DNA of 32,000 bases, taken from NCBI RefSeq assembly GCF_009734345.1, contig NZ_CP032551.1, positions 870,001 through 902,000 of the forward strand, given 5' to 3'. The notes below the pieces were generated by a model, which searched no databases, had not been told where the DNA came from, and saw only the letters and a program-made list of their open reading frames with translations. Below, one piece after another: positions 1 to 26,191 of this stretch (positions are counted from its first letter, which is position 1; each line of letters starts with the position of its first letter). The stretch is from Pseudidiomarina andamanensis. GTDB lineage: Bacteria; Pseudomonadota; Gammaproteobacteria; Enterobacterales; Alteromonadaceae. A program made the position numbers and the translations under genes.

Positions 1-471
1 ACTAAAATACAAAGCATACCCATTCACATCGGTAACAACTTTTACCGCATGCGGACTTTGTACTTCTTCTAGCGAAGAAATCGGTACCGCCAAGGTCGCC
101 ATTTGTGCAAGTTTTTGATTCGCTAGATTATCTGCTACTTGGCGAATGATCTCAGGCGGAATAAACGGCTCATCCCCCTGCACGTTGACCACCACTTGAT
201 CATCAGCAATGGCTAAATAATCAATGACTTCAGCAATTCGTTCAGTACCTGAATTGTGGTGCGGCGAGGTCATCATAGCTCGTCCACCAAACGCTTCAAC
301 GGCGTCAATGATGCGCTGATCATCGGTGGCGACAATAACTTCAGCAGCACCAGCGGCGGCGGCACGTTCGTAAACACGCTGAATCATGGTTTTATTGCCA
401 ATCATCGCCAGTGGTTTACCCGGCAAGCGAGACGATGCGTAACGTGCGGGAATTATGACGGTAAAGCTCAT
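1..471 (-). CDS. kdsB: 3-deoxy-manno-octulosonate cytidylyltransferase (CMP-KDO synthetase); the C-terminal part lies beyond the left window edge
   Basis: Absent from the ORF track because it runs off the edge. My translation of the minus strand from the ATG at 471-469 gives [82 protein letters not shown]...[15 protein letters not shown]. This is a typical KdsB N-terminus (IPAR..S.R.PGKPL, QGDEP). The ATG overlaps the ycaR TGA (ATGA at 468-471), and the lpxK-ycaR-kdsB order is conserved. Confidence 0.9.
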
Positions 472-665
472 GACGATAGTTGCTCCAACTCTGCGCTGCT
501 AAGCTCACGGGCTTCGTGGCTTAATAGCATCGGAATATCATTGCGAACCGGATACGCGAGCCGCTCACCGCGACACACTAATTCACTTTTATCAGCAACC
601 CAAACTAACTTTCCTTTGCATAAAGGACACGCCAAAATAGCTAAAGTCTTCTCATCAACCGCCAT
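468..665 (-). CDS. ycaR: Trm112/YcaR family small protein (UPF0434)
   Basis: This is track ORF 468..716 trimmed to the internal ATG at 665. The product [20 protein letters not shown]...[11 protein letters not shown] has the CPxC knuckle and the IP-hydrophobic motif typical of YcaR. The start lies 2 nt after the lpxK TAA (670-668). Confidence 0.85.
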
Positions 666-667
666 AA

Positions 668-1654: not shown

Positions 1655-1656
1655 GA

Positions 1657-3429: not shown

Positions 3430-3486
3430 GCAATTCTTATAAAGTTCAACAATATCTGCATTCTAACCGCTTTCACCAGTGGCTGG

Positions 3487-5763
3487 CTAGTTATCCGCAT
3501 CAAACCATGCTCTATTCTTACCAGCCCAAGGCTGATGTACTTGCCATTTATTCTGCGCAAAGGTCACGGTAATTTGGCCTCCGCGGGCGGTATCTAGTAA
3601 GGGTATGCTTAATTCTTCAAGCCGCTGTTTCACTTGTTCGGCTACCATGCCGTACGCATTGTTCCGCCCCCGGCTTGCGATTGCGACTTGTGGCGCAACA
3701 GACTGTAAGAAATAGCTCTCGCTTGAACTATTGCTGCCATGATGAGGTAATACCAACAGGTCTGCTTGAATGGGTGCAATATGAGCCAGTAAGGCTCGCT
3801 CAGCGCGTTTTGTTATATCACCGGGTAATAGAATCGACGTGCCACCAATCATTAATTTCAATACACACGAGTCGTCATTGTAACGATTATTGGTTACTTC
3901 TCGTGGATGCAATATCGCCCATGTAACTTGACGCCACTGCCCTGTTTGACCAGCAACGCAGGGTAAGCCATGACCACTACCGTACCATCGCATAGCCGGA
4001 AATTGCTCCGAGATAGTCGTAACACCGCCCTCATGATCATTGTCAGTGTGACTCACGAAGCCATAGATAGGTGTAAGTTGATGATGTCGTAAAAATGGCA
4101 ATATCACCCTTTCCGCCATATTCCCCCCAAGCTCCCAATTCGCCCCGGTATCAACAATCACGGCTTCATCAGCCTGCGCAATGACGATAGCGCTGCCCTG
4201 ATCAACATCAAGAATATGAAGCCGCACCAAAGTGTTTTGTTGTTGCAACTGATGCGAAATGATCAGTCCAAAGCCAAAAATGGCCGTGCAGCTTAACTTC
4301 CAGTACCAGCGCCACGGCCAAACCCACGTGATCAACACCACCACCAAACCGATGATTGGGCCGGTCAGGTGTGCGGGTACCCACTGCCACGTCAACTTAG
4401 ACAGATAATTCAATAGTGGTTCTGCATAGTTGAGTGGTACCTCAGCAATACGTAATAGTCCAAGCGATATCCCATCGCTACCCAACAACAGCATGAGCAA
4501 ACCGAGCAAACTGAGTGGCAACACCCAAAACGTAACTAGCGGCACAACAACAAGATTCGTAAGCGGAGCCAGTAGTGGTAAACCATCAAACCACATTGCG
4601 GTTAGCGGCCACATGGCAAACGTTAATGTCAGTTCAAGTCGCCACAAAGCTCGGATACTTTGCCAACGCCCGCTAATAATCGGCCAGCGCCAATTCATTA
4701 AGAGAATCGTTGCTACCGCAGCTACCGATAACCAAAATCCACTTTGCAAAGGTGCCAGGGGATGCACCACGATGACCACAGCGACAGCTCTTAAAAGCAC
4801 CCGACTTGGCGGTGTATGCAGAGCAAAATACTTGTGGATGATAACCACCGAAAACATAACAAATGCGCGCACCGTTGCGGTCGCAAAACCTGCTAAACCG
4901 GCGTAAAAAAATGTAACCACAAGGGCAACACAGGTTGCAATAAACCAACTATTATTTGTTTCTCGGCGCCTACGACTGCGCGCTTGATAACGTAAAAGAG
5001 TACGAAAAAGCCACAACACACCGCCAGCTACGAGGGTTAAGTGCAGCCCTGATATTGCAATTAAATGGGCAAGCCCAGTGCGTTGATAGGTTTGCCACTG
5101 TTCATCAGACAGCGCTTGCCGTTCGCCCAAAGTTAACGCTTGTAAAATACCAAACTGCTGCAGTTCCGGCTGAAAGTAGTTAAGTTGATTGAATAGTTGC
5201 TGTCGAAAGTTTGGTTCACCAGCAACGAAGGTACCAGAGCGTATACTCCCTAGAGCATGAATTTGTTGACCGACAAGATAGCGATGATAAAGAAACCCAC
5301 CGTCATTACGAACCCCTTGCGGGGCTTTGAGTCGTGCTCGAAATTGCCAAGTTGTGCCAGCTTGTGGAGGAATAACCAGCGCCGGTGGCTCATACCAACT
5401 TAAGCGCGCAGTAGCCGATCTCGATAACAACTGGTTTTCTATACTTTGAATTTCTCCTTGAATACGCCAAAAGTCTGGACGAACTTGAGTTATTTCCGTC
5501 ACCGTCATCTGCAAAGACACTGGTTTATTCAGATTCTCATCAAAGATCAGCGTATTTTGATGCAAATAAGCGTTGCCACTACCCCACGCTATGCCGCACA
5601 ATACACAGCCGAGAATAATGGCGTACGGTCGCAGCAAAGCATAACGCCATGACACGACAGCGACTAAAGTAGCAAGTATGACCCATTGCTGGATGCTCAT
5701 CGGCTTGCTAAAAGTAAAGGTTAGCGCATAACCGGCAAGCGCCGCGCACAACCACCTATCCAT
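3487..5763 (-). CDS. comEC: DNA internalization-related competence protein ComEC/Rec2
   Basis: 758 aa polytopic membrane protein with a C-terminal metallo-beta-lactamase-type domain (VSHTDNDHEGG, LPHHGS). Its position upstream of msbA matches E. coli ycaI. Confidence 0.85.
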   Translation of the reverse strand: MDRWLCAALAGYALTFTFSKPMSIQQWVILATLVAVVSWRYALLRPYAIILGCVLCGIAWGSGNAYLHQNTLIFDENLNKPVSLQMTVTEITQVRPDFWRIQGEIQSIENQLLSRSATARLSWYEPPALVIPPQAGTTWQFRARLKAPQGVRNDGGFLYHRYLVGQQIHALGSIRSGTFVAGEPNFRQQLFNQLNYFQPELQQFGILQALTLGERQALSDEQWQTYQRTGLAHLIAISGLHLTLVAGGVLWLFRTLLRYQARSRRRRETNNSWFIATCVALVVTFFYAGLAGFATATVRAFVMFSVVIIHKYFALHTPPSRVLLRAVAVVIVVHPLAPLQSGFWLSVAAVATILLMNWRWPIISGRWQSIRALWRLELTLTFAMWPLTAMWFDGLPLLAPLTNLVVVPLVTFWVLPLSLLGLLMLLLGSDGISLGLLRIAEVPLNYAEPLLNYLSKLTWQWVPAHLTGPIIGLVVVLITWVWPWRWYWKLSCTAIFGFGLIISHQLQQQNTLVRLHILDVDQGSAIVIAQADEAVIVDTGANWELGGNMAERVILPFLRHHQLTPIYGFVSHTDNDHEGGVTTISEQFPAMRWYGSGHGLPCVAGQTGQWRQVTWAILHPREVTNNRYNDDSCVLKLMIGGTSILLPGDITKRAERALLAHIAPIQADLLVLPHHGSNSSSESYFLQSVAPQVAIASRGRNNAYGMVAEQVKQRLEELSIPLLDTARGGQITVTFAQNKWQVHQPWAGKNRAWFDADN

Positions 5764-5818
5764 GGACGTTGTACCTGTTTATTAAAATAACTTCGGTAAG
5801 AGTGAAGACGGACTAGAC

Positions 5819-6370
5819 ATGCCACGCAAGTTTATTCAACGCATCATGCCCAAGCATGAAACTGTGAGAAACAGCAAAAGCCTAAAAGTCTTCGGCAAGT
5901 TATTGCACGATGCTAACCTGTGGCACCTTAATCGTCGTTCTGCTGCTGGTGGTTTCGCCGTTGGACTATTTTTTGCGTTTATTCCGGTGCCATTTCAGAT
6001 GGTTCTTGCAGCTGCAGCAGCCATCCCATTTCGCGTTAATTTGCCGCTTTCGGTCGCCTTAGTTTGGGTTTCAAACCCAATCACCATGCCCGTGTTATTT
6101 TATTTTTGTTATCTGCTGGGTAACTGGATTCTCGGGCAACCACCGCAAACCTTTAGCTTTGAATTATCTTGGCACTGGTTAGCGCAAAGTATTGCGACTA
6201 TTGGCCCCGCGTTCCTGCTGGGCTGTCTGATTATGGCAGTAATTAGTAGTATCGCCGGGTATTTCACTATTAGCCTGTTGTGGCGCCAATCAGTCGTCAG
6301 TGCATGGCGCGAACGTGCACAGCGCATGCTCGAAAAAGCGAAACATCGTAAACACGAATCTAATGACTAA
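5819..6370 (+). CDS. DUF2062-family inner-membrane protein
   Basis: 183 aa. The N-terminus (PRKFIQRIMPKHE...LWHLNRRSAAGGFAVGLFFAFIPVPFQM) and three hydrophobic segments fit my memory of the DUF2062 family. Its function is unknown. Confidence 0.65.
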   Translation: MPRKFIQRIMPKHETVRNSKSLKVFGKLLHDANLWHLNRRSAAGGFAVGLFFAFIPVPFQMVLAAAAAIPFRVNLPLSVALVWVSNPITMPVLFYFCYLLGNWILGQPPQTFSFELSWHWLAQSIATIGPAFLLGCLIMAVISSIAGYFTISLLWRQSVVSAWRERAQRMLEKAKHRKHESND

Positions 6371-14241: not shown

Positions 14242-14733
14242 ATGGAAAAGTACGAAGAATTGCTGCTGGCACTTCGAAAAGTCATTCGCGCAACAGACTT
14301 GTACTCCAAGCAACTGAACAAACGCACCGGCTTAACAGCGCCACAGCTGCTCATATTAAGAGAGATAGCGGCTGCCCCAGACGGCATTACAGCCAGCTCT
14401 GTCGCTCAAAATATTACTTTAAGCCCGGCAACCGTGAGTAATGTCATTGACCGACTTGAACATCGCGAGTTAATTCACCGTGAGCGTAGCACCGAAGATC
14501 GGCGTCGTGTGGTGCTATCATTGACAGCGCAAGGTAAACAGCGGTTAGCGGAAGCGCCAAGACCGCTCCAGGAAGATTTTATTCATAAATTTCAGTCATT
14601 AGACGATTGGGAGCAGTCGCTGCTAGTGGCAGGTATGCAACGCATTGCAGCCATGATGGATGCCGAAAAGCTTGATGCTGCAGATGTACTTGAAGTAGGA
14701 ACCTATGAACAAAAGAAATATCGCTCGCGCTAG
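14242..14733 (+). CDS. MarR-family winged-helix transcriptional regulator
   Basis: 163 aa. GLTAPQLLILREIAAAPDGITASSVAQNITLSPATVSNVIDRLEHRELIHRERSTEDRRRVVLSLTAQG is a canonical MarR wHTH plus wing. Confidence 0.85.
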   Translation: MEKYEELLLALRKVIRATDLYSKQLNKRTGLTAPQLLILREIAAAPDGITASSVAQNITLSPATVSNVIDRLEHRELIHRERSTEDRRRVVLSLTAQGKQRLAEAPRPLQEDFIHKFQSLDDWEQSLLVAGMQRIAAMMDAEKLDAADVLEVGTYEQKKYRSR

Positions 14734-16495
14734 CTTTACGGCTATCTCTCTGCTGGTTTTATCGAGTTGCGCTCAAGTTACGCAGCCTGAACTATGCGAT
14801 AGTAGCATCACGCCAATTTATGCCATTCAAGGTGACGGATTTCAGTCACCAGTGAGCGGTCAACAAGTGACTACGCGCGGAATTGTTACCGCTAACTGGC
14901 AAAGTGAAGCTGAACTCGGTGGCTTTTTTATAGCCAGCGAACAAGCCGACCGCGACGATAATGCACTGACGTCAGAGGGGTTATTTGTACAAGCAAGTGC
15001 CAATTTAACCAGCCTTAAACAAGGTGATCTGGTGTATTTGACGGGTACTGTCGCCGAGCTCAATGAGTTAACCCAACTAACTAACCTCAGTCAGCATGCT
15101 GTTTGCGACTCTGGTTATACGGTTGAGCCTACCTCTTTTCAACTGCCAGTCACCGCAAAAGAACAGTTCGAAGCGCTTGAAGGCATGCCGGTTCAGATTA
15201 GCCAGGAATTGGTCGTCAACGGTCATTATCAGTTGTTACGGCATGGTCAATTTGATGTGGCACATGAACGTCTGTATACGCCCACGCAACACCATCAACC
15301 TGGTGCCGAAGCGCAGTCTCAGGCCAAAGCGAATGCGTTAGCTCGACTCGTCATTGATGATAACTTGGCGCCGAATTCAACGATCATGGTTGCCCCTAAG
15401 CAAAACATCACAGCTACGAATAGCCTCCGCAGTGGCGATAGCATCGGTCCAGTTCAGGGTATTATTAGTGACTTTCGTGGCAGCTACCGCTTACAACCAA
15501 CGTCACAGATTAGCGTGGTAACGACGAATCCACGCCCAGCAGCACCAGAAGCACCAACAACCAATACACTGCGTGTTGCCGCCTTTAACGTGCTGAATTA
15601 CTTCAATGGCGAGGGTGAGAATAAGCAATTTCCAACCGAGCGGGGTGCCAAAACTGCTGCTGAATTTGAACGCCAGCATCAGAAAATCATCGCCGCACTC
15701 GGCCAGTTGAATGCTGACATTATTGGCTTATTGGAACTCGAAAACGATGGCTATGCGAGTCATAGCGCAATCGTTGAGTTAACCACAGCACTCACTGCGG
15801 CAACTGGGCAACCATGGCGATATGTGCAGGCTGCTCCGGGTAAATTTGGTAGTGATGACATCACCAATGGTCTCATTTATCGCAGTGATAAAGTGACACC
15901 ACAAGGGCAACCACTAACGGTAACGCAAGCACCGTTTGGACAACGCAGTCGCCTGCCTCTTATTCAACGCTTTTCTCCTAAGAATACAGTTGAAAACGTC
16001 GTTGTTGCCGTAAACCACTTTAAATCTAAAGGGGGCTGTCCGAAAGATAATAGCGACCCGAATGCCAACCAGAGCGACGGGCAAGCCTGCTGGAACAAAG
16101 TGCGCGTTCAATCGGCCAAAGCATTGGCTGATTTCATAGACAACCATGAAGATTTAAAGCGTTTTCCGTTACGCGTACTAATGGGCGATTTTAATGCCTA
16201 TGCGCAAGAAGACCCAATTCAAACGTTACTACAACGCGGCTATTACAATCGCATCGATGCATTTAATCCGCATGCCTATAGCTATGTGTATGATGCGCAG
16301 GCTGGTAGCCTTGACCACCTGCTCGTCTCGAGCCAGTTGGCTGCTCGTGTTGTTTATCAAGCCATTTGGTCAATAAATGCCGACGAACCTACACTGCTGC
16401 AATACAACAATGCCGACGCAAACCCCAATTGGTATGCGCCCTCCCCTTACCGAGCGTCTGATCACGACCCCATTTACGCTGATATTCAGTTTTAA
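14705..16495 (+). CDS. ExeM/NucH-type extracellular nuclease (endonuclease/exonuclease/phosphatase fold), lipoprotein
   Basis: 596 aa with a lipobox LVLSS-C. The N-terminal module resembles ExeM/NucH (ITPIYAIQGDGFQSPVSGQQVTTRGIVT). The EEP domain carries LRVAAFNVLNYFN, GLLELEND, VNHFKSKG, MGDFNAY and SDHDP. Confidence 0.8.
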   Translation: MNKRNIARASFTAISLLVLSSCAQVTQPELCDSSITPIYAIQGDGFQSPVSGQQVTTRGIVTANWQSEAELGGFFIASEQADRDDNALTSEGLFVQASANLTSLKQGDLVYLTGTVAELNELTQLTNLSQHAVCDSGYTVEPTSFQLPVTAKEQFEALEGMPVQISQELVVNGHYQLLRHGQFDVAHERLYTPTQHHQPGAEAQSQAKANALARLVIDDNLAPNSTIMVAPKQNITATNSLRSGDSIGPVQGIISDFRGSYRLQPTSQISVVTTNPRPAAPEAPTTNTLRVAAFNVLNYFNGEGENKQFPTERGAKTAAEFERQHQKIIAALGQLNADIIGLLELENDGYASHSAIVELTTALTAATGQPWRYVQAAPGKFGSDDITNGLIYRSDKVTPQGQPLTVTQAPFGQRSRLPLIQRFSPKNTVENVVVAVNHFKSKGGCPKDNSDPNANQSDGQACWNKVRVQSAKALADFIDNHEDLKRFPLRVLMGDFNAYAQEDPIQTLLQRGYYNRIDAFNPHAYSYVYDAQAGSLDHLLVSSQLAARVVYQAIWSINADEPTLLQYNNADANPNWYAPSPYRASDHDPIYADIQF

Positions 16496-16572: not shown

Positions 16573-16575
16573 TTG

Positions 16576-17151
16576 ATGGTGAGTCAGGAATATTCTGGAT
16601 TTGGGCAAATTACGGATGAAGTAACCCTCGCTGCCGCGGTTGCTGGTAAATCACGTGCCCAGCAAATCATATTTGAGCGATATAAAAGCTCAGTGCTGCG
16701 CACGCTTATTGGTTTATGTCACGACCGAGAGCTTGCTCGCGATCTCGCCCAAGATGTATTTCTTCAGGCGTTTACAAAGCTTCATCAACTCCGCAATCAA
16801 CAAGCCTTCGGCGCATGGCTAAAGCAGCTGACTGTGCGCACTGCTTTATCCTATTTTCGCGCACGGTCACCAGTGGCTGAGTCGATAGAGGAAGAATTCA
16901 TTGATAGCACCGAGTGGTCTGCGCAAGCCGATTGGCTTGTTCAATTACGTGATATTGAAACGTTAATTGCACAGCTAAATGATACCGAGCGCCTCACTGT
17001 CTGGCTCTATTTAGGCGAAGGTTACACTCACGAAGAGATTGCTAATCTCCTCGACGAACAGGCATCGACCGTGCGTAAACGTTATCAACGTGCCTTAATG
17101 AAACTAAATACTTTTTTGACACAAGAGGTACCTCATGACCACAAAGCATGA
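16576..17151 (+). CDS. ECF (group IV) sigma-70 family RNA polymerase sigma factor
   Basis: 191 aa from the ATG at 16576 (the track uses the TTG at 16573). Region 2 is DLAQDVFLQAF...FGAWLKQLTVRTALSYFR. The region 4 HTH is YTHEEIANLLDEQASTVRKRYQRALMKL. Confidence 0.85.
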   Translation: MVSQEYSGFGQITDEVTLAAAVAGKSRAQQIIFERYKSSVLRTLIGLCHDRELARDLAQDVFLQAFTKLHQLRNQQAFGAWLKQLTVRTALSYFRARSPVAESIEEEFIDSTEWSAQADWLVQLRDIETLIAQLNDTERLTVWLYLGEGYTHEEIANLLDEQASTVRKRYQRALMKLNTFLTQEVPHDHKA

Positions 17152-17518
17152 GCAACAATTGCAACAACAGTGGCAACAATATGTTGCCACTGAAGCTGAG
17201 CATGTTGAACTCGAATTTCCGCAACAACGGACTACTCAATTTGAGAAAAGAATCAAACCAATGTGGCTAACCGCGGTGGCCTTTGTGATGGCGATTGCGG
17301 TAACGTGGTGGTTGTCATTTCTACCCGTTCCTGAGTCATCAGAAGCAAGCATCGCCGGCGCTCCTGCATCGCCATCTAACGAGGTAGCACCTATGTTACT
17401 TGCAGCGAACTATCGTCTTGATTCTTTAGAGCGACGCATTCAACAGGCGTATCTACAAGGAGCCTCAGATGCTGAGCTGCAACAATTGTGGCAGCAACAT
17501 CAAGCGCTTGCCGATTAG
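17135..17518 (+). CDS. putative single-pass anti-sigma factor (non-ZAS)
   Basis: 127 aa, overlapping the sigma gene by 17 nt. It has a Gln-rich cytoplasmic N-terminus, one TM helix (MWLTAVAFVMAIAVTWWLSFL) and a roughly 60-aa periplasmic tail. There is no HxxxCxxC motif. The anti-sigma role is assigned by position only. Confidence 0.5.
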   Translation: MTTKHEQQLQQQWQQYVATEAEHVELEFPQQRTTQFEKRIKPMWLTAVAFVMAIAVTWWLSFLPVPESSEASIAGAPASPSNEVAPMLLAANYRLDSLERRIQQAYLQGASDAELQQLWQQHQALAD

Positions 17519-17526
17519 GAGGTTTA

Positions 17527-18357
17527 ATGATGGTTAAATCAATATTAGCGCTGATAGCGGCAGGTTTATTTTGTATTCCTGCACTCGCACAGGAGCAGCA
17601 GGCTCGAGATTATGCTCGGGCAGCGGCTATCGCCGCCAGTAAAGCTCATGGTTCGCAGCCACAGGTTGTGCTTGAAGAGCCTGCACGTAGCTATTTTGAA
17701 TGGGGTGCTATTCTCAATCAACAAGCTAAAGTAGTCAGCGTGCGTAATGGCAGTGTCGCTGATGAAATGAAGCTACAAATGGGTGATATGATTCTATCCA
17801 TCAATCGGCAGCCGGTTGCACCACAACAACTTGACGATGCTCTCACTATTCTTGCCTCGTTAGACCATAATCAACCATTCTCCGTAGGCATTAAGCGCGA
17901 TGGCGAAACACTTGAATTAACCGGTGTAGCCCGTGCGACAGTCATTCCAGGTTGGCGTCTTGAAGTGCTAAATACCTTGGAAGAAGAAACACCTTCGACT
18001 ATCACCGATAGCGCCTGCGGCCGAATTAGCGTGTTTTTCACGCCGCCAGTTACCGCTGATTTATACCCAGCATTTATCAACTCAATTGATGGCGACAATG
18101 TCCGAATCAAAAACCCATCATTTAAGCTCGCCGTAAACGATTACAAAGTTGGCGTTCATGAACTCATTGATGAGCCATCTCTGCGTCGTGGCGGCGGCAG
18201 CGCTCCTGAAAAACTTATTCAACTAACGATTGAACCGAATAAAACCTATCACATTGCCGCGAAATTTATCCGCGAAAAGCGTTATCAACGTTTTGATGCT
18301 GGATACTGGGAGCCCGTTGTTTGGAAAGTAACCGAACAAACTTGTCAGGTAGACTAA
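17527..18357 (+). CDS. secreted PDZ-domain protein with an unassigned C-terminal domain
   Basis: Trimmed to the ATG at 17527, which has a perfect AGGAGG 6 nt upstream and lies 8 nt after the anti-sigma TAG. It has a signal peptide (ILALIAAGLFCIPALAQE) and a PDZ-like core (VVSVRNGSVADEMKLQMGDMILSINRQPV...FSVGIKRDGETLELTG). I could not place the roughly 150 C-terminal residues in any family. Confidence 0.65.
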   Translation: MMVKSILALIAAGLFCIPALAQEQQARDYARAAAIAASKAHGSQPQVVLEEPARSYFEWGAILNQQAKVVSVRNGSVADEMKLQMGDMILSINRQPVAPQQLDDALTILASLDHNQPFSVGIKRDGETLELTGVARATVIPGWRLEVLNTLEEETPSTITDSACGRISVFFTPPVTADLYPAFINSIDGDNVRIKNPSFKLAVNDYKVGVHELIDEPSLRRGGGSAPEKLIQLTIEPNKTYHIAAKFIREKRYQRFDAGYWEPVVWKVTEQTCQVD

Positions 18358-18392: not shown

Positions 18393-18425
18393 TTGACAAA
18401 ATTGAAACTATGTAGGATGAATTTC

Positions 18426-19793
18426 ATGGCCTCACGTGCTTTATTTGCGCTTACCGCAGCAGCCGCATTCGTACTTGCTAGTTGTTCTAGCACCGCGAAT
18501 AATTCAACTGTCGACACCACTGCTTCGAAGGAGCAATCGCCAAATATCATTTTTATGATTGGCGATGGCATGGGCTTTGAGTTTATCTCAGCCTATCGTT
18601 ATGCCATGAGCCAGCGCGGCACCGGTGAGCTTGCGCCAACGCCATTTGATGATCTGTTGGTGGGCGCAGCAACGACATATCCTGATGATGATACTTGGGT
18701 GACCGATTCAGCCGCTAGTGCAACAGCCTTAGCAACCGGCGTGAAAAGCTACAACGGTGCTATTGGCATTGATGCAGATAAAAACCCAAAACAAACTCTG
18801 ATGGAGTTAGCTCGCGATAAGGGTTGGTCGACCGGTGCTGTTGCTACGGTGCAAGTAAACCATGCCACCCCGGCAAGTTTTTTTACCCATCACCCCTCGC
18901 GCAATCTGTATAACGATATTGCTGATTCTTATGCCCAGCAAGTGAGCGCAGGTGGTTGGAGTTTTGATGTACTTTTAGGTGGCGGTCACAGTTACTTCAA
19001 GCGTGACGATGTGAACTGGTTACCGCAGCTTGAGCAGCAAGGTCTCCAAGTTATTACCGAGCTAGAGCAGCTTGACGACGTATCGGCTAGCCCAGTATTG
19101 GGACTTTTCGCGGACAAAGCACTGCCCTTTGCCATTGATGATCGTCCAGGACGTCTTGCCGAGATGACCAAGCATGCATTGCGGCTTCTTGAAAACCGAT
19201 CTGAGCAAACTGGCAAGCCGTTTGCATTGATGGTTGAAGGTAGCATGATTGATTGGTGTGGACATGCAAATGATATCGCCTGCGCCGTGCATGAAATGGC
19301 GGATTTCGCCGCTGCCGTCGAGGTAGTGCGAGATTATCTTGCTGATAATTCTAATACCTTATTAGTTATTACGGCCGATCATTCAACCGGTGGTTTAACG
19401 TTGGGTCAAGGGGGTGAATATGCTTGGTACTCAGAAAAAGTGATGGGTATTCAAAAATCGGTGGAAGCGATGGCCACTGAGTTAGTGCAACTACCGAAGT
19501 CAGCTTGGCGCGACTACTTAACGCCTGAGTTGAATCTGCCACTAACCGATAGTCAATGGCAACAACTGGAGTCAGTGACCATTGATGAGCAACTCAAAGG
19601 TCGCGACAAACTCAAGCCAGTTCATCAGGTATTAGTGCAGATTATCAGCGAACATACGCGTACCGGTTGGACGACTTCTGGTCATACCGCTGTCGATGTT
19701 CCTGTGATGGCCGTAGGCCCTGGTGCAGAAGCCTTCCGTGGCTACATTGATAACACCGATATTGCTAAAGCCTTATTGAAGCTGGTGCGTTAA
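18426..19793 (+). CDS. phoA: alkaline phosphatase (PhoA family), lipoprotein
   Basis: IFMIGDGMG and the active-site VTDSAASATALATG are present, along with metal ligands near DWCGHAND and ITADHSTGG. The lipobox is VLAS-C. The start is set at the ATG at 18426, with AGGA 8 nt upstream. The ATG at 18417 is possible. The track's TTG at 18393 falls immediately after the predicted -10 (18387-18392), upstream of the likely transcription start. Confidence 0.9.
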   Translation: MASRALFALTAAAAFVLASCSSTANNSTVDTTASKEQSPNIIFMIGDGMGFEFISAYRYAMSQRGTGELAPTPFDDLLVGAATTYPDDDTWVTDSAASATALATGVKSYNGAIGIDADKNPKQTLMELARDKGWSTGAVATVQVNHATPASFFTHHPSRNLYNDIADSYAQQVSAGGWSFDVLLGGGHSYFKRDDVNWLPQLEQQGLQVITELEQLDDVSASPVLGLFADKALPFAIDDRPGRLAEMTKHALRLLENRSEQTGKPFALMVEGSMIDWCGHANDIACAVHEMADFAAAVEVVRDYLADNSNTLLVITADHSTGGLTLGQGGEYAWYSEKVMGIQKSVEAMATELVQLPKSAWRDYLTPELNLPLTDSQWQQLESVTIDEQLKGRDKLKPVHQVLVQIISEHTRTGWTTSGHTAVDVPVMAVGPGAEAFRGYIDNTDIAKALLKLVR

Positions 19794-19803
19794 GCGCACC
19801 AGC
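19781..19803. other. 9-bp perfect hairpin spanning the overlapping stop codons of convergent phoA and the asnB-like gene
   Basis: GCTGGTGCG-TTAAG-CGCACCAGC. The loop contains both stop codons (TAA 19791-19793 on the plus strand, TAA 19792-19790 on the minus strand). There is no flanking U-tract on either strand. Confidence 0.6.
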
Positions 19804-21805
19804 CCAATTCGTTAGCCCGCTGTTGGGCTAACGCTGGCACATCCGTTTTAACAAAATGATGATGGAGAATTTGCACACCTAACATGTGATTAATCACAGC
19901 ATCAAGCTGCACCTTCTCATCAATCGGTACTTCGTCTGACTCATGACGCGCAAAAGTACGTTGCACTTCATCAAAATCAAGTAAGCCCGCTTCTTTCACT
20001 GCATCTTCAGATAAAAACTGTTCCGCAAGTTTCAATACCGCTCGCCACTTCTTCGGATCGGTATGCGCCGGCGGCGCCATAAACGCAAACTTTTCACGCT
20101 TATACAACGTCTCCGGCAACAACCCTTTCATGGCTTCGCGCAGCACATATTTCTCTTTATTGCCTTTAATACGCAGATGCGGCGGTACGGTAAAGGCGTA
20201 TTCAGCAAGGTGATGATCTAAAAACGCAGGTCGTGCCTCCATTGAGTTTGCCATATCGACTCGGTCACCACCCCACGTTAATATCTGCCCTTCTAACATG
20301 GTTTTAATCCACACATATTGCGCGCGGTCGAGTGGATGACGTCCTTTTAACATGGTTTCATCTAATGTCGCGGCAATGGCTTTGCCGGCATCGTATTCTT
20401 GCAGGCCTTCTCGACGCTCGGCTGCAATTAACGGCAGTGCAACATCACCGCATGACAACCAAGGTTGAACGCAGCTTGGCGTGAAACCCATTTTGGCATT
20501 GAATGCAGCGCTTACAAACTCTTCGCGCGCTAACATGGCCCCTTTAAATAGCTTGTTGTTCTTCTCCAACAATTCTTGCCACGCTTTACGTTCGCTATCT
20601 GGTAAATGGTCTAACCCATGTAAAAACATATCTTTGCGAAATGCTGGATAGCCCGCAAAAAGCTCATCTGAACCTTCGCCAGTAAGCACCACCTTGTAGC
20701 CAACTTCGTTTACCTGCTGACTCATCAGGTACTTGGCAACACCCAACGTGTTATAGATGGTGCGCTCGGTATGCCAAATGGTTTTCACGAAATGGTCATA
20801 AAGGTCATCAGCTTTCAAACGCATAATGTGATGATCAGCGCCAGTTGCCTCAGCCATTTCTTGAGCAATAGGCGTCTCATCGTAGTCATCCGAATCAAAG
20901 CCAATGGTAAATGCCTTCACCGAAGTTTGTGTCGCCGCAGCTGACAAGCCAAGAATAGCGCACGAGTCAATGCCACCGGATAAATAGCAACCAACCGGAA
21001 CGTCAGCGGTTAAGCGATGTTGTACCGCCTCTAATAGGTGTTCACGAACGCCGTCAATGTATTGCTGTTCATCCACGTCATCGCCCGGATACTCATGCTC
21101 TAGAGGAAAGTTAACATCCCAGTATTTTGACTCACTTAGCTCAAGTTTGTCGTTTTTGCGAGTCACTTTCACAACATGACCAGGAGCAACCTGTTTTACG
21201 CCTTTGAACGCTGTTGTACCTGGCACCATCACTTGAATTAACTGGTGATATAAACCCTCACTCGAGAACTCACGCTTCACCGATGGATGCGCAAATAGTA
21301 CTTTAAGCTCTGAACCAAATACGACGCCATCTGCTGTTTCGGTGTAATACAGAGGTTTGATACCGAATCGGTCGCGCACTAAATACATGGCGTCTTCATT
21401 ACGATCGTACAAGCCGAATGCGAATTCTCCGCGTAAATGTTTCAGCGTTTCTTCCAGACCTTCACGCGCGTACAAATGCAAGACGATTTCTGAGTCGCTT
21501 TTGCTACGAAAACGAGCACCTTGTGCGGTTAAATCGGCGCGAATACGTTTAAAATCATAAAACTCACCGTTGTGCGCCAATAATAATTGACCACTATCGC
21601 TGACAAACGGTTGCCGCGCGCGATCTTCGTTTAAATCGATAATTGACAATCGCGCGTGGCTGAACCCCACACCCGTGTTGTCGAGAATTTGATAGCCAAA
21701 ACCATCTGGCCCGCGGTGATGCATGATGGCTGCCATATTTACCAAGGTTTGTGCATCTGGCTTCAGCTTGGCATCACGATTAAATATTCCTGCTATTCCA
21801 CACAT
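19790..21805 (-). CDS. asparagine synthetase B-family glutamine-dependent amidotransferase (long form, 671 aa)
   Basis: It has the N-terminal nucleophile MCGIAGIF of an Ntn glutaminase domain (HRGPDG, AHNGEFYD, SDSE). The PP-loop YLSGGIDS is at residues 275-281, followed by TGEGSDELFAGY. It is about 115 aa longer than E. coli AsnB. An AGAGGA Shine-Dalgarno lies 10 nt upstream. Confidence 0.85.
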   Translation of the reverse strand: MCGIAGIFNRDAKLKPDAQTLVNMAAIMHHRGPDGFGYQILDNTGVGFSHARLSIIDLNEDRARQPFVSDSGQLLLAHNGEFYDFKRIRADLTAQGARFRSKSDSEIVLHLYAREGLEETLKHLRGEFAFGLYDRNEDAMYLVRDRFGIKPLYYTETADGVVFGSELKVLFAHPSVKREFSSEGLYHQLIQVMVPGTTAFKGVKQVAPGHVVKVTRKNDKLELSESKYWDVNFPLEHEYPGDDVDEQQYIDGVREHLLEAVQHRLTADVPVGCYLSGGIDSCAILGLSAAATQTSVKAFTIGFDSDDYDETPIAQEMAEATGADHHIMRLKADDLYDHFVKTIWHTERTIYNTLGVAKYLMSQQVNEVGYKVVLTGEGSDELFAGYPAFRKDMFLHGLDHLPDSERKAWQELLEKNNKLFKGAMLAREEFVSAAFNAKMGFTPSCVQPWLSCGDVALPLIAAERREGLQEYDAGKAIAATLDETMLKGRHPLDRAQYVWIKTMLEGQILTWGGDRVDMANSMEARPAFLDHHLAEYAFTVPPHLRIKGNKEKYVLREAMKGLLPETLYKREKFAFMAPPAHTDPKKWRAVLKLAEQFLSEDAVKEAGLLDFDEVQRTFARHESDEVPIDEKVQLDAVINHMLGVQILHHHFVKTDVPALAQQRANELGWCA

Positions 21806-21822
21806 ACTTACTCGGTCCTCTT

Positions 21823-22887
21823 TTATACGACGTCTATGACACGCTCAGCGCGTTCTACCATGCATGTCAAAAGGGCCATGCGTAAAAATACCGCACCACG
21901 CGCTTGGCTGAAGTACCAGTTATGCGTAGTGTGATCGAGATCAGTCGATAACTCCTCGCCACGCGCTAAAGGATGCAGAATAATCGCATCCTCTTTCAAT
22001 GGCGATTTTGCCGTCAAATGAAAGGCGCTACCGTAGGTGTTAAAGGTATCGCCTTCCCACGATATGGCGTTTATATACACCACATCTAAGCTAGATAAGA
22101 CCTCTTCGAGTTCAGTACTCGTTGTAATATGAATGCCTCTCGCTTCAAGTTCTTCCCGTTGACCTACGCCAAATAAATCAGTAGAGCTGGCTTCATCATG
22201 AATGATCACCAACTCTTCCACGGCATGCGGAAACACCGATAAACATTTAAGAAAACTGCGCACGGTACGCATTTTGTTCGGTACGCCAATCACGCCAATG
22301 CGAATCTTTGTGTTATTTGCAGCATCAATAAGTTCTGGTCGCCATTTAAAAATGGCATACATATCCGCAAGCGCTTGCGTCGGGTGCTCATCCACACCAT
22401 TACCCGCATTAATAATGGGAATGCGCAGTGCATCCATCATTTCAAACAACGAACTTTCATTATTATCACGCAACACCACGCAGTCGCCGTAGTTATTGAA
22501 CATTTCAGCAACGTCAGCCAAACACTCACCTTTGGCAATGCCAGTCGTTGAGCGATCGGTGATTGACATAATATCGCCACCGAGGCGATGCCAAGCGCTC
22601 TCAAATGAAAGCCGCGTACGCGTGCTTGGTTCGTAAAATGCGCTAATCAAAATTTTATTTTGTAACGGCGAGCTGAAACGCTTCGGGTTACTTTCAATTT
22701 TTGCTGCTAAGCGAAATAGCTGTTTCATGGTGTCTTGATCAAACTGATCGCCAGACACAATATGCTGATTCGCTAGTTTGACTAAATAGTCACCATCTTC
22801 CTGAATCACCCTGAGCAAGGCTTTCGGATGCGCGTCGCCATAGACATCAGGCCGCTCACGTTCAAATGAGACATCGTTCATATTCAT
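21823..22887 (-). CDS. aspartate carbamoyltransferase-like transcarbamylase paralogue, second substrate unknown
   Basis: 354 aa. FYEPSTRTRLSFE (STRTR = 22612-22626, verified on the DNA), HPTQALAD, MRTVRS and LHPLARGEE match the ATCase catalytic-chain motifs. It also carries a roughly 36-aa N-terminal extension and has the aspartate-site RxQ replaced (see findings). Confidence 0.75.
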   Translation of the reverse strand: MNMNDVSFERERPDVYGDAHPKALLRVIQEDGDYLVKLANQHIVSGDQFDQDTMKQLFRLAAKIESNPKRFSSPLQNKILISAFYEPSTRTRLSFESAWHRLGGDIMSITDRSTTGIAKGECLADVAEMFNNYGDCVVLRDNNESSLFEMMDALRIPIINAGNGVDEHPTQALADMYAIFKWRPELIDAANNTKIRIGVIGVPNKMRTVRSFLKCLSVFPHAVEELVIIHDEASSTDLFGVGQREELEARGIHITTSTELEEVLSSLDVVYINAISWEGDTFNTYGSAFHLTAKSPLKEDAIILHPLARGEELSTDLDHTTHNWYFSQARGAVFLRMALLTCMVERAERVIDVV

Positions 22888-22893
22888 AGTGTG

Positions 22894-23013
22894 TTACCAA
22901 AGTTGTTTAGAAATGAAATCTTTTAACCACAGCGCTATCAAAATGAGCGGCGCCATCGCTGCGAAAATAAGGCAAATCATCACTAACGCGCTAAATTCGG
23001 TTAATCCGAGCAT
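22894..23013 (-). CDS. 39-aa hydrophobic micro-protein (not in the ORF track), possible symporter accessory subunit
   Basis: My translation is MLGLTEFSALVMICLIFAAMAPLILIALWLKDFISKQLW*. The ATG (23013-23011) overlaps the symporter TAA (TAATG). An AGGAG Shine-Dalgarno (23026-23022) lies 8 nt upstream. The TAA (22896-22894) is 6 nt before the ATCase-like ATG. The ORF fills an otherwise unexplained 125-nt gap. Confidence 0.55.
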   Translation of the reverse strand: MLGLTEFSALVMICLIFAAMAPLILIALWLKDFISKQLW

Positions 23014-24440
23014 TACGATGACTCCTGTAATTTGTTCCAATCAAAATTTTGCTTCGAGCGCCAAACACCTATCGCACAAACTGCTGCAGATAGCGCACAG
23101 GCGGTAAGTGCGGCGACATAAAATCCAATTAAAAAATAACTCACAAGGCCAAGCAGTGTGCCGCCAGCCATGGCCACTGCCGCGTATTTCCCAGATAGCT
23201 TATTTTGATATAAGCCGAAAACTATTGGGAAAATCGTACTGGCAACAAACGCACCGGCAAAATTCAATAAGGCGCCCAAAGTGGCAACCTGAGGTAAACA
23301 GAACAGCCAGGTCAACACGCCAATTCCAGCAATACAATAGCGATTAAACGTAAATAATTGCTTGTCGGTTGCCTTTGGGCGTAATTTTTTGTGGTAAAAG
23401 TCTCGCGTTACTAAATCGGATGTTGCTGCAAGTAATGAATCAAGACTAGACGCTAACGCTGAAAAAACCACGATAAACACAACAACGGCACCAACTTTAC
23501 CAAGCACCTCAGCGGCAACCATCGGGCCTACCATATCGGCACTGGGAGGGAAAATGCCTAATTGTGGCGCAGCCAGCGCGATAAATCCGGTGACAATTGG
23601 AATCGGCAGCCAGAGCAAACCACCAAGTAAAAACGCTTTAAACGCAACGTTCCCTTTAAACGCGAGTGCACGAGACCACCACACATTCGAATGAAATATT
23701 TCGCCCAGGCCGAAAAATATATTGTTAAACAGAAACATAATGGCGGCTGGAAACATTAAGTCGAGTAATCGAGGATGATTCTCTGATAATTCGGTATGAA
23801 TACTTTCGAGGCTCACCGTATCAATTAAAAACCAAGCAATACCAACCACCCCGATGATAATGATCAACGCTTGGATAAAATCGGTGGCGATGACCGCACG
23901 TAGACCGCCAAACAAGGTGTAGCCAACGCAGATTACCAGAATAGCCGTCATGCCAATGTGATAATCCAAGCCACTCAACGCTTCGAGTAATATACCTCCC
24001 GCCATACCAAGGCTGACGAGCCAACCGAAGGCATAAACCACCGAAATGACCATAAATACCCACCACGCCGCTCGACCAAAGCGCAGACGGATAAAGTCAC
24101 CTGAGGTATAACCATGCGGCATTAAACGCTTTATACGCGCCGCAAGCGGTGCAAATAGAATAAGTCCCAGTGCGGCAAACGAATACCCCACCATACCCCA
24201 GATACCGAACTGATAGGTCAATTGCGGGGCGACAAGTGTGGTGTTACTGGTCACCCAGGTTGCCATCGCTGTTGCTGCGGCTAATGCGAAGCCCACGTTA
24301 CGCCCCGCTAGCGCAAAATCTTCGTGAGTTTTATTCGCACGCCCTAAATACCAGCCAAATGCTATCCAGAGCAATCCAAAGATCACTACCAAACTGAGCC
24401 CAAGGGTACTATCTAATGCAAAATCTGCAGTTTCACTCAT
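23013..24440 (-). CDS. sodium:solute symporter (SSF) family transporter
   Basis: 475 aa polytopic protein. The N-terminus (DFALAGRNVGFALAAATAMATWVTSNTTL) is typical of PutP/PanF/ActP-type SSF proteins. A GGAG Shine-Dalgarno lies 8 nt upstream, and the ATG overlaps the upstream ORF by 8 nt. Confidence 0.8.
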   Translation of the reverse strand: MSETADFALDSTLGLSLVVIFGLLWIAFGWYLGRANKTHEDFALAGRNVGFALAAATAMATWVTSNTTLVAPQLTYQFGIWGMVGYSFAALGLILFAPLAARIKRLMPHGYTSGDFIRLRFGRAAWWVFMVISVVYAFGWLVSLGMAGGILLEALSGLDYHIGMTAILVICVGYTLFGGLRAVIATDFIQALIIIIGVVGIAWFLIDTVSLESIHTELSENHPRLLDLMFPAAIMFLFNNIFFGLGEIFHSNVWWSRALAFKGNVAFKAFLLGGLLWLPIPIVTGFIALAAPQLGIFPPSADMVGPMVAAEVLGKVGAVVVFIVVFSALASSLDSLLAATSDLVTRDFYHKKLRPKATDKQLFTFNRYCIAGIGVLTWLFCLPQVATLGALLNFAGAFVASTIFPIVFGLYQNKLSGKYAAVAMAGGTLLGLVSYFLIGFYVAALTACALSAAVCAIGVWRSKQNFDWNKLQESS

Positions 24441-24972
24441 GCGCTCGGCTCCGACGATGTTGATGCAGAATGATCACGACGAGAATTGCAAACAGCAGGC
24501 CACCAAGGGCAAACAAGGTTAGCGCTTGTTCTAAAGCGTAGTGATCCACCTGAACGCGCACCACGTTACTTACCTGGTTACTTGACTGAATACTTGGCTG
24601 AGAGTTTTTCGGGCTTAGGCCGCCTGATTCATCCGCAACTGCGCGGATACGAAAGTAGTGATTACCGTCATCGAAGCCGGTGAGTGTCATACGTTGAAAA
24701 TCACCAAACCAAGGATAAGTGCGCTCAATCTCACGAAAATCTTCGTCTGTTGAATACTCAACAATGAAACCTTGAGATGGTGATTCAGATAGGCTCAACA
24801 CAAAATAGCCTTCGCGACTTGATTCTGGCGCAGATAACTCCGGTAGCGAGCTGTTCGCCAAATTGGATGGGTTGGTTTGGGAAGATAAAACGTAGGCAGA
24901 AGCGGGTCGCGCAAGCAGCGTGATGAGTAACAACAAAGCAATGTTTATAACGAACCTTGCGCGGTCTGGCAC
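24433..24972 (-). CDS. bitopic membrane protein: signal peptide, beta-rich (FN3/Ig-like by pattern) periplasmic domain, C-terminal TM anchor
   Basis: 179 aa from a GTG start with AGGAAGGA upstream. The signal peptide is INIALLLLITLLARPASA-Y. The pattern GYFVLSLSESPSQGFIVEYSTDEDF...LTGFDDGNHYFRIRAV looks FN3-like. The C-terminus has a TM helix (LTLFALGGLLFAILVVIIL) followed by HQHRRSRAHE. I recognise no family. Confidence 0.6.
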   Translation of the reverse strand: MPDRARFVINIALLLLITLLARPASAYVLSSQTNPSNLANSSLPELSAPESSREGYFVLSLSESPSQGFIVEYSTDEDFREIERTYPWFGDFQRMTLTGFDDGNHYFRIRAVADESGGLSPKNSQPSIQSSNQVSNVVRVQVDHYALEQALTLFALGGLLFAILVVIILHQHRRSRAHE

Positions 24973-25068
24973 AATTCCTTCCTGTAGCCCTTTGTTCCTA
25001 GGCTACCAAGTGAGGAAAATCATTTCAACTTAAGGTATGCTCACAAGCAATGTCGTTTAGGGAATGTT

Positions 25069-25485
25069 ATGCATCCGATTTATTTATGTAGCATGGGCGC
25101 CAATATCGCGCCAGAAAGCAATTTTGCTGCCGCTCGCGAGTCGATCTCAGAGCTGGGCAAAGCTTATTATTCACGCGCTATCTATACACAACCCGTTGAT
25201 ATGCGCAGTGACCATGACTTCCTCAATGCCCTATTTTTAATCGTTTCACCGTTAGACAGTATTGCTCTCAAAAAGCGGTTCAACGCTATCGAGATTAGTC
25301 TGGGGCGAGATCGTGATGATCCGCTTAGTAGTAAAAAAGATCGCCCAATGGATATCGACATTTTGGGTGAGCTGAACTCTGACCTAGTGTGGCAAGAAGT
25401 ACCTGACTATTTGCAAGAAGTCGTTCCAAACCTTAAACCAATCGCTGATAAACTTGTTCAAACGCAAGGGGCATTACATGACTAA
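25069..25485 (+). CDS. divergent, short HPPK-like protein (FolK fold)
   Basis: 138 aa. By eye it aligns to E. coli FolK: YLCSMGANI / YIAIGSNL; YSRAIYTQP / SSFYRTPP; DFLNALFLI / DYLNAAVAL; IEISLGRDR...DRPMDIDIL / IELQQGRVR...PRTLDLDIM. Confidence 0.6.
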   Translation: MHPIYLCSMGANIAPESNFAAARESISELGKAYYSRAIYTQPVDMRSDHDFLNALFLIVSPLDSIALKKRFNAIEISLGRDRDDPLSSKKDRPMDIDILGELNSDLVWQEVPDYLQEVVPNLKPIADKLVQTQGALHD

Positions 25486-26191
25486 TTCAAAGAAGTTTGC
25501 TTTAGTGACCGGCGCAGGTCGTCGATTTGGCTTAGCTTTGGCACATGCACTGCTCGATGAGGGGTATCAGGTACTTGCTCATTACAACACGTCTAAAGAC
25601 GGCATAGATGAACTTGAACAGCGCGGTGCCATTGGTTTACAAGCAAACTTAGCAAACTTAAATGACGTGCATCAGTTAATTCAGGCTGTGCAACAACATT
25701 GCCCGAAATTGCATCTATTGGTTAACAACGCATCATGCTTTTTTGATAACCAACGTGTGGATGAAAGTGATGCCAATCTCGTCGCGGTATTAAATGTGCA
25801 CACCGCAGCGCCCTACTTGCTGATTAACAAGCTACAGCAGCAGCTCACCAATGCCGAAGGTAGTGTCGTTAATATCACCGACATCTATGTTGATAGCCCC
25901 TCTACCGACTATATCGCGTATTGCGCAGCGAAAGCTGGTTTAGCAAGTTTGACACAAGCATTTGCCAAAAAATTAGCCCCAGCGGTGCGCGTTAACGCAA
26001 TCCAGCCGGGGCCAATATTATTTTTGCCTGAGCACGATAGCCAGCACCGTAAAAAAGTACTCGCTGAAACACCACTGAACCTTGAAGGAGGTTTAGAGCC
26101 GATGATAGCTGCGGTGCGCTTTTTACGCGACAACCCATTTATCACCGGCGAATCCATCAAAGTAGATGGTGGCCGCGCTTTGACCATTTAG
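25478..26191 (+). CDS. folM: FolM-type short-chain dehydrogenase (pteridine / dihydromonapterin reductase-like)
   Basis: Trimmed to the ATG at 25478, with AAGGGG 7 nt upstream and an 8-nt overlap with the HPPK-like stop. VTGAGRRFG fits the TGxxxRxG signature that distinguishes FolM/PTR1-like SDRs from the classical TGxxxGxG. The catalytic YCAAK is present. Confidence 0.7.

Follow-up and report, generated by a model that had tools for sequence, protein, structure and literature searches.

Five genes chained on the minus strand of a 32,000-nucleotide stretch of the Pseudidiomarina andamanensis genome (contig NZ_CP032551.1, positions 870,001 to 902,000; hereafter the window, whose numbering is used for its coordinates) form an operon that we regard, with somewhat more conviction than doubt, as the core of a self-contained compatible-solute system, combining synthesis, uptake, breakdown and regulation, for an N-carbamoyl amino-acid amide. 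The genes encode a 179-aa membrane protein, a symporter of the SSF family, a 39-aa peptide, a protein resembling aspartate carbamoyltransferase (ATCase) and a glutamine-dependent amidotransferase of the AsnB type. The system is larger than these five genes: a MarR-family regulator lies apart from them in the window, and hydrolases that accompany related clusters are either elsewhere in the Pseudidiomarina genome or absent from it.

Each of the 80 genome loci that a search with the ATCase-like protein retrieved shows the order 179-aa protein, symporter, 39-40-aa peptide, ATCase-like enzyme and AsnB-like enzyme, as do six further loci, and together these make up our gammaproteobacterial set of 86. 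Carriers among the 80 genomes include Idiomarinaceae, Kangiella, Aliikangiella, Pleionea, Ketobacter, Pseudomaricurvus and Bowmanella, with Thiothrix nivea, Sedimenticola, Bowmanella denitrificans and Pseudoalteromonas ruthenica as further carriers of the identical arrangement. We take the named carriers, such as Idiomarina, Kangiella and Pseudoalteromonas, to be marine or halophilic, Thiothrix nivea being an exception. The best matches, with 95% identity to P. donghaiensis, agree with the window coming from a Pseudidiomarina. The flanks of the cluster vary between genera of Gammaproteobacteria while the core order is strict, and such conservation of a five-gene order is far beyond chance. A profile of four sister proteins led to a large family in Planctomycetota, Myxococcota, Opitutales and Phycisphaerales, in which the cluster recurs at about 45% identity in Rubinisphaera and Rosistilla (Planctomycetota), in a Myxococcota metagenome-assembled genome (MAG) and in 80 metagenome loci, many of them on saline contigs. 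The gene set spans at least three bacterial phyla.

In Rubinisphaera italica and Rosistilla carotiformis, the order runs small membrane protein, SSF symporter, 40-41-aa open reading frame (ORF), ATCase-like gene, AsnB-like gene, and then genes for an M20-family and an isochorismatase-type hydrolase. Among the 80 metagenome loci of this sister family, counted wherever a locus had enough sequence, the AsnB-like gene directly follows the ATCase-like gene in 55/55 cases, as it does in every gammaproteobacterial locus, and the SSF gene precedes the ATCase-like gene in 56 of 60. An earlier note on this DNA had described five chained minus-strand cistrons from 24972 to 19790 and had suggested a neighbourhood check of the ATCase-like, AsnB-like and SSF trio; all five ORFs and all four junctions match its description, and the trio proves to be co-conserved both within Gammaproteobacteria and across phyla.

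The cistrons follow one another with hardly any spacing (Table 1). The 179-aa ORF overlaps the SSF gene by 8 nt (ATGAGTGA), the stop codon of the SSF gene overlaps the ATG of the micro-ORF by 1 nt (TAATG), and the two remaining junctions are spacings of 6 nt, before the ATCase-like gene, and 17 nt, between it and the AsnB-like gene, the latter with AGAGGA inside. Base composition is flat over the operon region, and a consensus scan returned four terminator-like sites, compared with 7.7 expected from shuffled sequence.

Table 1 Position and basis of assignment of the operon genes, the promoter-like element and the MarR-family regulator in the window
Feature	Coordinates	Strand	Basis
First cistron, 179-aa bitopic membrane protein	24433..24972	-	ORF list; GTG start, AGGAAGGA just upstream
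Symporter gene, 475-aa SSF protein, DUR3 (urea transporter) branch	23013..24440	-	PF00474; DUR3 structural relatives
Micro-ORF, 39-aa single-transmembrane protein MLGLTEFSALVMICLIFAAMAPLILIALWLKDFISKQLW	22894..23013	-	ORF and conservation; translationally coupled to symporter gene
ATCase-like carbamoyltransferase, 354 aa	21823..22887	-	OTCace_N and OTCace domains
AsnB-type glutamine-dependent amidotransferase, 671 aa	19790..21805	-	GATase_7/6 and Asn_synthase domains
Promoter-like element	25000..25028	-	-35 TTGAAA 25028-25023, 17-nt spacer, -10 TAGCCT 25005-25000
MarR-family regulator, 163 aa, EctR/CosR type	14242..14733	+	MarR domain; 5 kb past operon 3' end

The ATCase-like protein falls below all curated cut-offs for PyrB and ornithine carbamoyltransferase (OTC), scoring 201.5 bits against 236.95 for TIGR00670, 189.8 against 263 for NF002032 and 166 against 512 for NF006046. 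In alignment with E. coli PyrB, its carbamoyl-phosphate site is intact (EPSTRTRLSFE, VVLRD, EHPTQ and an aligned Lys, corresponding to S52-T55, R105, H134-Q137 and K84), and the equivalent of Arg167 is retained (MRTVRS). R229 is replaced by Ala, Q231 by Ser, K232 by Trp and R234 by Gly, and HPLPR reads HPLAR; across the family, the R229 position holds Ala or Ser and that of Q231 Ser or Ala, with the motif N-A/S-I-A/S-W standing at the place of the PyrB sequence TRVQK. Arg167 of ATCase binds the alpha-carboxylate of its substrate, and Arg229 and Gln231 bind the beta-carboxylate of aspartate. Retention of the former and replacement of the latter pair by Ala and Ser therefore point to a substrate that is an alpha-amino acid but not aspartate and probably has a neutral side chain, and on the same grounds L-glutamine appears to be the best candidate.

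A conserved N-terminal extension of about 35 aa precedes the transcarbamylase domain. The family forms a single cluster at 50% identity, and its sister clusters, at 35-48%, keep the extension and also lack R229 and Q231. There is no second ATCase homologue within the 32-kb window, and a plasmid search with the ATCase-like protein returned only canonical pyrB, at 31-35% identity. A group of more distant ATCase-like paralogues of about 355 aa (our numbers P0167-P0181) keeps the N-terminal extension and has degenerate STRTR and HPxQ motifs; judged by these motifs, they may be non-catalytic.

The AsnB-like protein passes the broad family model TIGR01536 (456 bits against a cut-off of 267) and fails the narrower ones, namely the AsnB equivalog NF006949 (287 against 499), TIGR03104 for AsnO of the N-acetylglutaminylglutamine amide (NAGGN) pathway (318 against 570) and the PEP-CTERM model TIGR03108 (400 against 817). 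Its motifs MCGIAG (with Cys2 as the nucleophile), HARLSIIDL, HNGEFYDF (N-G-E), SKSDSEIV (Asp) and the PP-loop LSGGIDS are those of an intact glutamine-dependent amidotransferase. The best match in the PDB is a non-canonical enzyme, the hydroxyamidotransferase 7ylz (187 bits), followed by E. coli AsnB (150 bits).

In other lineages, the cluster is usually accompanied by hydrolases. The M20 protein scores 359 bits for TIGR01879, the hydantoinase/carbamoylase family (cut-off 204), and passes a subfamily model named 'allantoate amidohydrolase' (534 against 399 bits); its nearest equivalog, the N-carbamyl-L-glutamate amidohydrolase ErtE, is matched at 352-382, below the cut-off of 520. Outside Idiomarinaceae and Thiothrix, gammaproteobacterial clusters have its gene as a neighbour in one of four arrangements (upstream and divergent, downstream and convergent, or co-directional on either side), and we take this variety as a signature of functional linkage. 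In the sister family, it is nearby in 21 of 32 loci, in 19 of which it is co-directional and directly follows the AsnB-like gene. An isochorismatase-type gene comes directly after the M20 gene in 12 of 27 sister-family loci; the nearest models to its product are BiuH (66 against a cut-off of 370), RutB and nicotinamidase, all below their equivalog cut-offs. The L-carbamoylase and isochorismatase-like amidohydrolase families cleave N-carbamoyl and carboxamide bonds, and the two proteins would thus supply one hydrolase for each bond that the transcarbamylase and the amidotransferase would install. The recurrence of two hydrolases of matching types in the clusters of other lineages lends weight to the earlier note's proposal of one carbamoylation plus one amidation. 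In the window itself, a tblastn search with the M20 protein found nothing, and no ORF of the isochorismatase type is present.

The symporter matches PF00474 (101 bits, residues 42-426) and remains below every NCBIfam equivalog cut-off. Its nearest solved relatives are DUR3 urea-proton symporters (PDB 9j7c, 9x5u and 9vim), at 103-117 bits, with other SSF structures at 37 bits or less. Nine urea-contact residues, including the tryptophan dyad W95/W338, have been described for AtDUR3 (PMC11840088). By an alignment-based mapping, four of the nine are kept in the symporter (W93, T98, Y117 and W338), Y315 is conservatively changed to Trp, and the other four positions carry smaller residues (W95T, Q124G, N305G and Y461L), as expected for a substituted urea rather than urea itself; the pocket would accordingly be enlarged to fit such a compound. 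Plant DUR3 has about 15 transmembrane (TM) helices in about 700 aa, and the two single-TM proteins encoded with the symporter, within the 22894-24972 part of the operon, could be split-off peripheral helices of a DUR3-type transporter.

In the 179-aa protein, a signal peptide is followed by a beta-rich extracytoplasmic domain of some 100 residues and by a C-terminal TM helix that leads into a basic tail; the protein gave no Pfam or NCBIfam match even at E up to 1. The family alignment shows conserved G-Y and G..G....R, with H-x9-F..G...F in the TM helix. A single-sequence AlphaFold2 model placed helices at 4-20 and 145-178 and strands across 54-112, its pLDDT of 51 being too poor for a fold search. 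A gene of this family precedes the SSF gene in about 80 gammaproteobacterial loci and also in the sister family, and we propose that the protein may serve as an accessory subunit of the symporter. The micro-ORF is a real gene: an ORF of 39-40 codons was picked at its position in 84/86 gammaproteobacterial loci, or in 78 of the 86 under a stricter search for an ATG start and a terminal Trp, and variability is highest at codon position 3, followed by positions 1 and 2 (0.59, 0.47 and 0.29). A central Pro, a (K/R)D(W/F) motif and a C-terminal (L/I)W are conserved in the peptide, and gene callers annotate it in Thiothrix, Sedimenticola, Bowmanella, Pseudoalteromonas, Rubinisphaera and Rosistilla. 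In four Ketobacter-like genomes (L058, L062, L067 and L078, at about 100-5900 of each locus), a second SSF paralogue, an RND adaptor and an unannotated, pump-sized ORF of about 1035 aa lie directly upstream of the cluster.

The MarR protein of the window shares 65% identity with the one encoded near the Pseudoalteromonas cluster; with those beside the clusters of Rosistilla (where the gene is divergent), Myxococcota and several metagenomes, full-length identity is 37-44%. A MarR gene of this type is found within the retrieved flanks of 62 loci and is immediately adjacent in several independent lineages. We also compared it with its closest homologues on annotated plasmid replicons (42-48% identity). 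The homologue in Leisingera (45%, E 6e-53) is divergent from ectABC-ask and that in Sphingobium (42%) from ectABCD-ask; in Vibrio nigripulchritudo the gene is just downstream of ectABC-ask and proVWX, and in a further Vibrio a protein of 158 aa (47%) is encoded divergently from a BCCT transporter gene. It is in such contexts that EctR and CosR have been published, as repressors of compatible-solute synthesis and uptake genes at low salinity. By its full-length similarity to these ect- and bcct-linked regulators, the window MarR belongs to the EctR/CosR subfamily, and we propose it as the putative repressor of the operon, an assignment made because of the linkage pattern across phyla.

Homologues of BCCT, EctABC and ProX are absent from about 170 loci of the system and from the window, so that no other recognised osmolyte gene lies near these regulators, save otsAB in the Myxococcota MAG (L088). 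There, otsA (GT20), otsB (trehalose phosphatase) and a GH15 trehalase gene stand directly upstream of the cluster, at 1312-5606 of the locus, with an EctR/CosR-like MarR gene upstream of them, and the region looks like an 'osmolyte island'. Together with the type of regulator and the DUR3-like transporter, this adjacency supports the idea of an osmolyte that the earlier note had put forward. The MarR gene of the window overlaps the next gene (14705-16495), for a 596-aa protein of the endonuclease/exonuclease/phosphatase family, by 29 nt, and co-transcription with this unrelated gene is therefore possible.

Between the first cistron and a divergent HPPK-like gene there is a gap of 96 bp, which contains the promoter-like element with its G/C-rich -10. 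Of 85 gammaproteobacterial loci, 55 have the pattern TTGAnn-N16-18-TAnnnT ahead of the first cistron, compared with 13 expected from shuffles, and TTGAAA-17-TAGCCT is a putative promoter of the operon, missed by our consensus scan because its -10 agrees at only three of six positions. Its -10 resembles that of the osmoregulated ect promoter of P. stutzeri (TTGAGA, 18 nt, TACCCT), a circumstantial likeness. A regex search for sigma-54 promoters upstream of the first cistron gave no matches. A riboswitch or leader RNA for the operon was considered and dropped, because an Rfam search of the entire window gave no match at gathering thresholds, and relaxing the limit to E up to 5 for 24300-25300 added none. 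In Kangiella, Aliikangiella, Pleionea, Sedimenticola and Bowmanella (L060, L066, L072 and L082-L084), palindromic TTTG-N4-CAAAG(C)TTTG sequences upstream of the first cistron cover the -35 and spacer of the conserved promoter; seen by eye, they are a candidate operator. The upstream regions of the sister family are too divergent for a motif to be recognised by eye, and we make no claim of a shared operator.

The AsnB-like gene converges on an alkaline phosphatase gene (18393-19793, PF00245), and their stop codons overlap by 4 nt (19790-19793), which leaves no space for a terminator between them. On the far side of the operon, the region 25069-26191 contains a gene for a 245-aa SDR protein and, overlapping it by 32 nt, a weak HPPK-like ORF (138 aa, PF01288 at only 45.8 bits). 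This divergent pair may be pterin-related, and was rejected as part of the system, its synteny with the cluster being restricted to Idiomarinaceae. Genes for an ECF sigma factor, a putative anti-sigma protein of 127 aa with no family match and a 289-aa PDZ-domain protein occupy 16573-18357, with overlapping start and stop codons.

What was observed directly is the gene content, the motifs and the linkage; the scheme that follows reads substrates, direction, regulation and physiological role from protein families and gene linkage. The ATCase-like enzyme would use carbamoyl phosphate to carbamoylate a neutral L-amino acid at its alpha-amino group, with L-glutamine as candidate, and the AsnB-type enzyme would adenylate the remaining carboxylate and amidate it with glutamine-derived ammonia. 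The product would be a small, uncharged and nitrogen-rich solute with a urea-like cap and an amide. The DUR3-related symporter, with its enlarged urea-type pocket, would import or recapture this solute together with the 179-aa protein and the 39-aa TM peptide. In most other lineages, the isochorismatase-type amidohydrolase and the M20 L-carbamoylase, encoded in or beside the operon, would undo both bonds and return the amino acid, and the EctR/CosR-type MarR repressor and the promoter with its G/C-rich -10 would place the system under salinity control. Pseudidiomarina would then hold the uptake and synthesis core, with the regulator 5 kb away and no hydrolases in the 32-kb window.

Several points weigh against this scheme. 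Every chemical step in it is read from family membership and gene linkage, and the choice of amino acid is guessed from two residues of the pocket. One carrier of the cluster, Thiothrix nivea, is not known as a marine organism, and solute surveys of planctomycetes reportedly recorded no carbamoyl solute. In many sister loci the hydrolase genes are co-directional and only 17-60 nt downstream, and are therefore probably co-transcribed with the synthesis genes, which is awkward for net accumulation. In the window, the MarR gene stands at a distance of five genes and runs into an unrelated one, and its proximity in Idiomarinaceae may be plain synteny. Carbamoyl-glutamine amide has been reported from Ectothiorhodospira marismortui; no Ectothiorhodospira was found among the top 120 matches of searches with the ATCase-like protein of the window and with its Sedimenticola homologue, an absence that is uninformative because both sets were filled with matches of at least 68% identity. 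As for planctomycetes, the part of a 2026 review that lists their solutes names no carbamoyl solute.

A rival reading is that the genes serve to take up and break down a ureido or amide nitrogen compound from outside the cell (urea, a biuret-like compound, an N-carbamoyl amino acid or a citrulline-like one). The DUR3-like symporter would import it, hydrolases and possibly a phosphorolytic transcarbamylase would release ammonia, CO2 or carbamoyl phosphate, and MarR would be a substrate-responsive repressor. Such a route would account for a symporter nearest to urea transporters, for an M20 enzyme that passes the allantoate amidohydrolase model, for an isochorismatase-type enzyme nearest to the models of the biuret hydrolase BiuH and of RutB, and for the co-direction of hydrolases and operon in many loci; catabolic transcarbamylases are known as well (catabolic OTC, putrescine and oxamate transcarbamylases). 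It has no role, however, for an amidotransferase that consumes ATP and glutamine and is the most invariant partner of all, and no carbamate kinase is linked to the cluster. Idiomarinaceae and Thiothrix retain the transporter and both 'synthetic' enzymes with no hydrolase nearby, four of the nine DUR3 urea contacts are replaced, and the regulator belongs to the EctR/CosR group rather than to a known catabolic MarR group. We consider a catabolic function unlikely. In a still less likely reading, the two-step synthesis is kept and its product would serve for nitrogen storage, for signalling or as a small bioactive metabolite. A glutamine derivative of this kind would be very rich in nitrogen, with four N atoms per molecule, Idiomarina and Kangiella degrade peptides and have surplus nitrogen, co-transcribed hydrolases suggest turnover, and Thiothrix nivea carries the cluster. 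Against this stand the EctR/CosR-type regulator, the trehalose-gene neighbourhood and the G/C-rich -10, all of which point to osmotic control; moreover, the cluster encodes a solute importer and no exporter, and lacks the tailoring or resistance genes typical of secondary metabolism.

The chemistry itself could differ, although we think this quite improbable. The amidotransferase might activate the ureido carbonyl to make a guanidino group, by the logic of ArgG or GMP synthetase, and so yield an N-guanidino acid, or the carbamoyl group might be a transient protecting group that the M20 enzyme takes off to give a free amino-acid amide. AsnB-type enzymes share the PP-loop ATP-pyrophosphatase superfamily with ArgG and GuaA, the non-canonical nature of 7ylz, the nearest solved homologue, shows that the family departs from plain amidation, and an M20 gene that is probably co-transcribed after the AsnB-like gene in about 19 sister loci would fit a sequential pathway. 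Yet we know of no AsnB-family member that acts on a ureido carbon, the AsnB-like protein passes the asparagine-synthase family model, and the pairing of a carbamoylase with an amidase fits a ureido bond and a carboxamide better than a guanidine; a protecting-group route followed by an amidase would be a futile cycle. A housekeeping explanation, with the ATCase-like gene as pyrB and the AsnB-like gene as an asparagine synthetase that lie near a transporter by chance, is effectively excluded. Older annotations do name many family members 'aspartate carbamoyltransferase (catalytic subunit)', and the AsnB-like protein passes TIGR01536. However, both proteins miss the respective PyrB and AsnB equivalog cut-offs, Arg229 and Gln231 are replaced (by Ala and Ser in the window protein) throughout the family and its sisters, there is no pyrI, canonical pyrB sequences are distant, and linkage to the SSF gene, the micro-ORF and the hydrolases is obligate across phyla, all of which sides with the earlier note's view that this is no pyrB or asnB housekeeping context.

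Compatible-solute pathways shape the survival of marine and halophilic bacteria under salt stress and supply industrial 'extremolytes'. As an osmolyte operon with an EctR/CosR-type regulator, the present one would be of a known kind; its enzyme specificities, transporter architecture and product would be new. NCBIfam (June 2026) holds no specific model for any component, and a full-text literature search found no genes assigned to carbamoyl-glutamine amide and no description of the cluster. Only two uncharged amino-acid-type osmolytes, NAGGN and carbamoyl-glutamine amide, have been described (Roberts 2005). In a more specific and distinctly tentative form of the compatible-solute reading, the operon would be a new system for the second of these, with a glutamine N-alpha-carbamoyltransferase, an AsnO-like alpha-carboxyl amidotransferase and a three-component, DUR3-derived transporter of ureido solutes. 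If so, an orphan osmolyte would gain its genes, and a supposedly 'rare' solute, controlled by an EctR/CosR-type regulator, would turn out to be widespread, occurring in Idiomarinaceae, Kangiellaceae, Pseudoalteromonas, marine Planctomycetota and Myxococcota. The transcarbamylase and AsnB families would each gain a new substrate specificity, the EctR/CosR regulon would extend past ectoine and betaine, and the known bacterial transporters would be joined by a DUR3-derived type that has two single-pass proteins as partners, the conserved 39-aa micro-protein among them. The 2026 genome description of the halophile Idiomarina solivarensis HP20-50, which carries the cluster (L027), cites only betB for solute synthesis, and the cluster may explain how halophiles such as Idiomarina manage without recognised ectoine or full betaine synthesis genes. 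The system is experimentally accessible, since its components can be expressed, the candidate product can be synthesised and cultured carriers exist.

With the PyrB catalytic chain (EC 2.1.3.2), the ATCase-like protein shares the fold, the trimer-type carbamoyl-phosphate site and Arg167, at 31-35% identity, whereas it has lost R229, Q231 and R234, reads HPLAR, carries the 35-aa N-terminal extension and has no PyrI partner. The symporter, at 475 aa against about 700 aa in DUR3, is without the C-terminal domain and is always encoded with two single-TM proteins. The hydantoin-utilisation and L-carbamoylase enzymes (TIGR01879, ErtE), like BiuH, RutB and nicotinamidase, belong to the same families as the hydrolases linked to the cluster, which score too low for their equivalogs. 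The ectoine system offers a MarR protein of the same subfamily (divergent, as in Rosistilla), the clustering of synthesis with uptake and a G/C-rich -10; its enzymes and product are wholly different, and the regulator in the window is 5 kb off rather than adjacent.

A precedent for two features of the pathway is the synthesis of NAGGN, the genes for which are known as a 'trio' (TIGR03104, TIGR03103 and TIGR03106) of asnO, ngg and an M42 peptidase gene. In it, an AsnB homologue amidates the alpha-carboxylate of glutamine, and a metallo-hydrolase is encoded inside the synthesis operon. Neither Ngg (GNAT plus ATP-grasp) nor the M42 peptidase is found in the window or in any related locus. The two systems would have in common an AsnB-type amidotransferase, an enzyme that caps the alpha-amino group, a linked metallo-hydrolase and an uncharged, glutamine-derived product, as proposed here. 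They differ in that NAGGN is capped by Ngg and the solute proposed here would be capped by a carbamoyl-phosphate-dependent transcarbamylase; in the place of the M42 peptidase, related clusters encode an M20 enzyme and a second hydrolase of the isochorismatase type, and a dedicated DUR3-like transporter is added.

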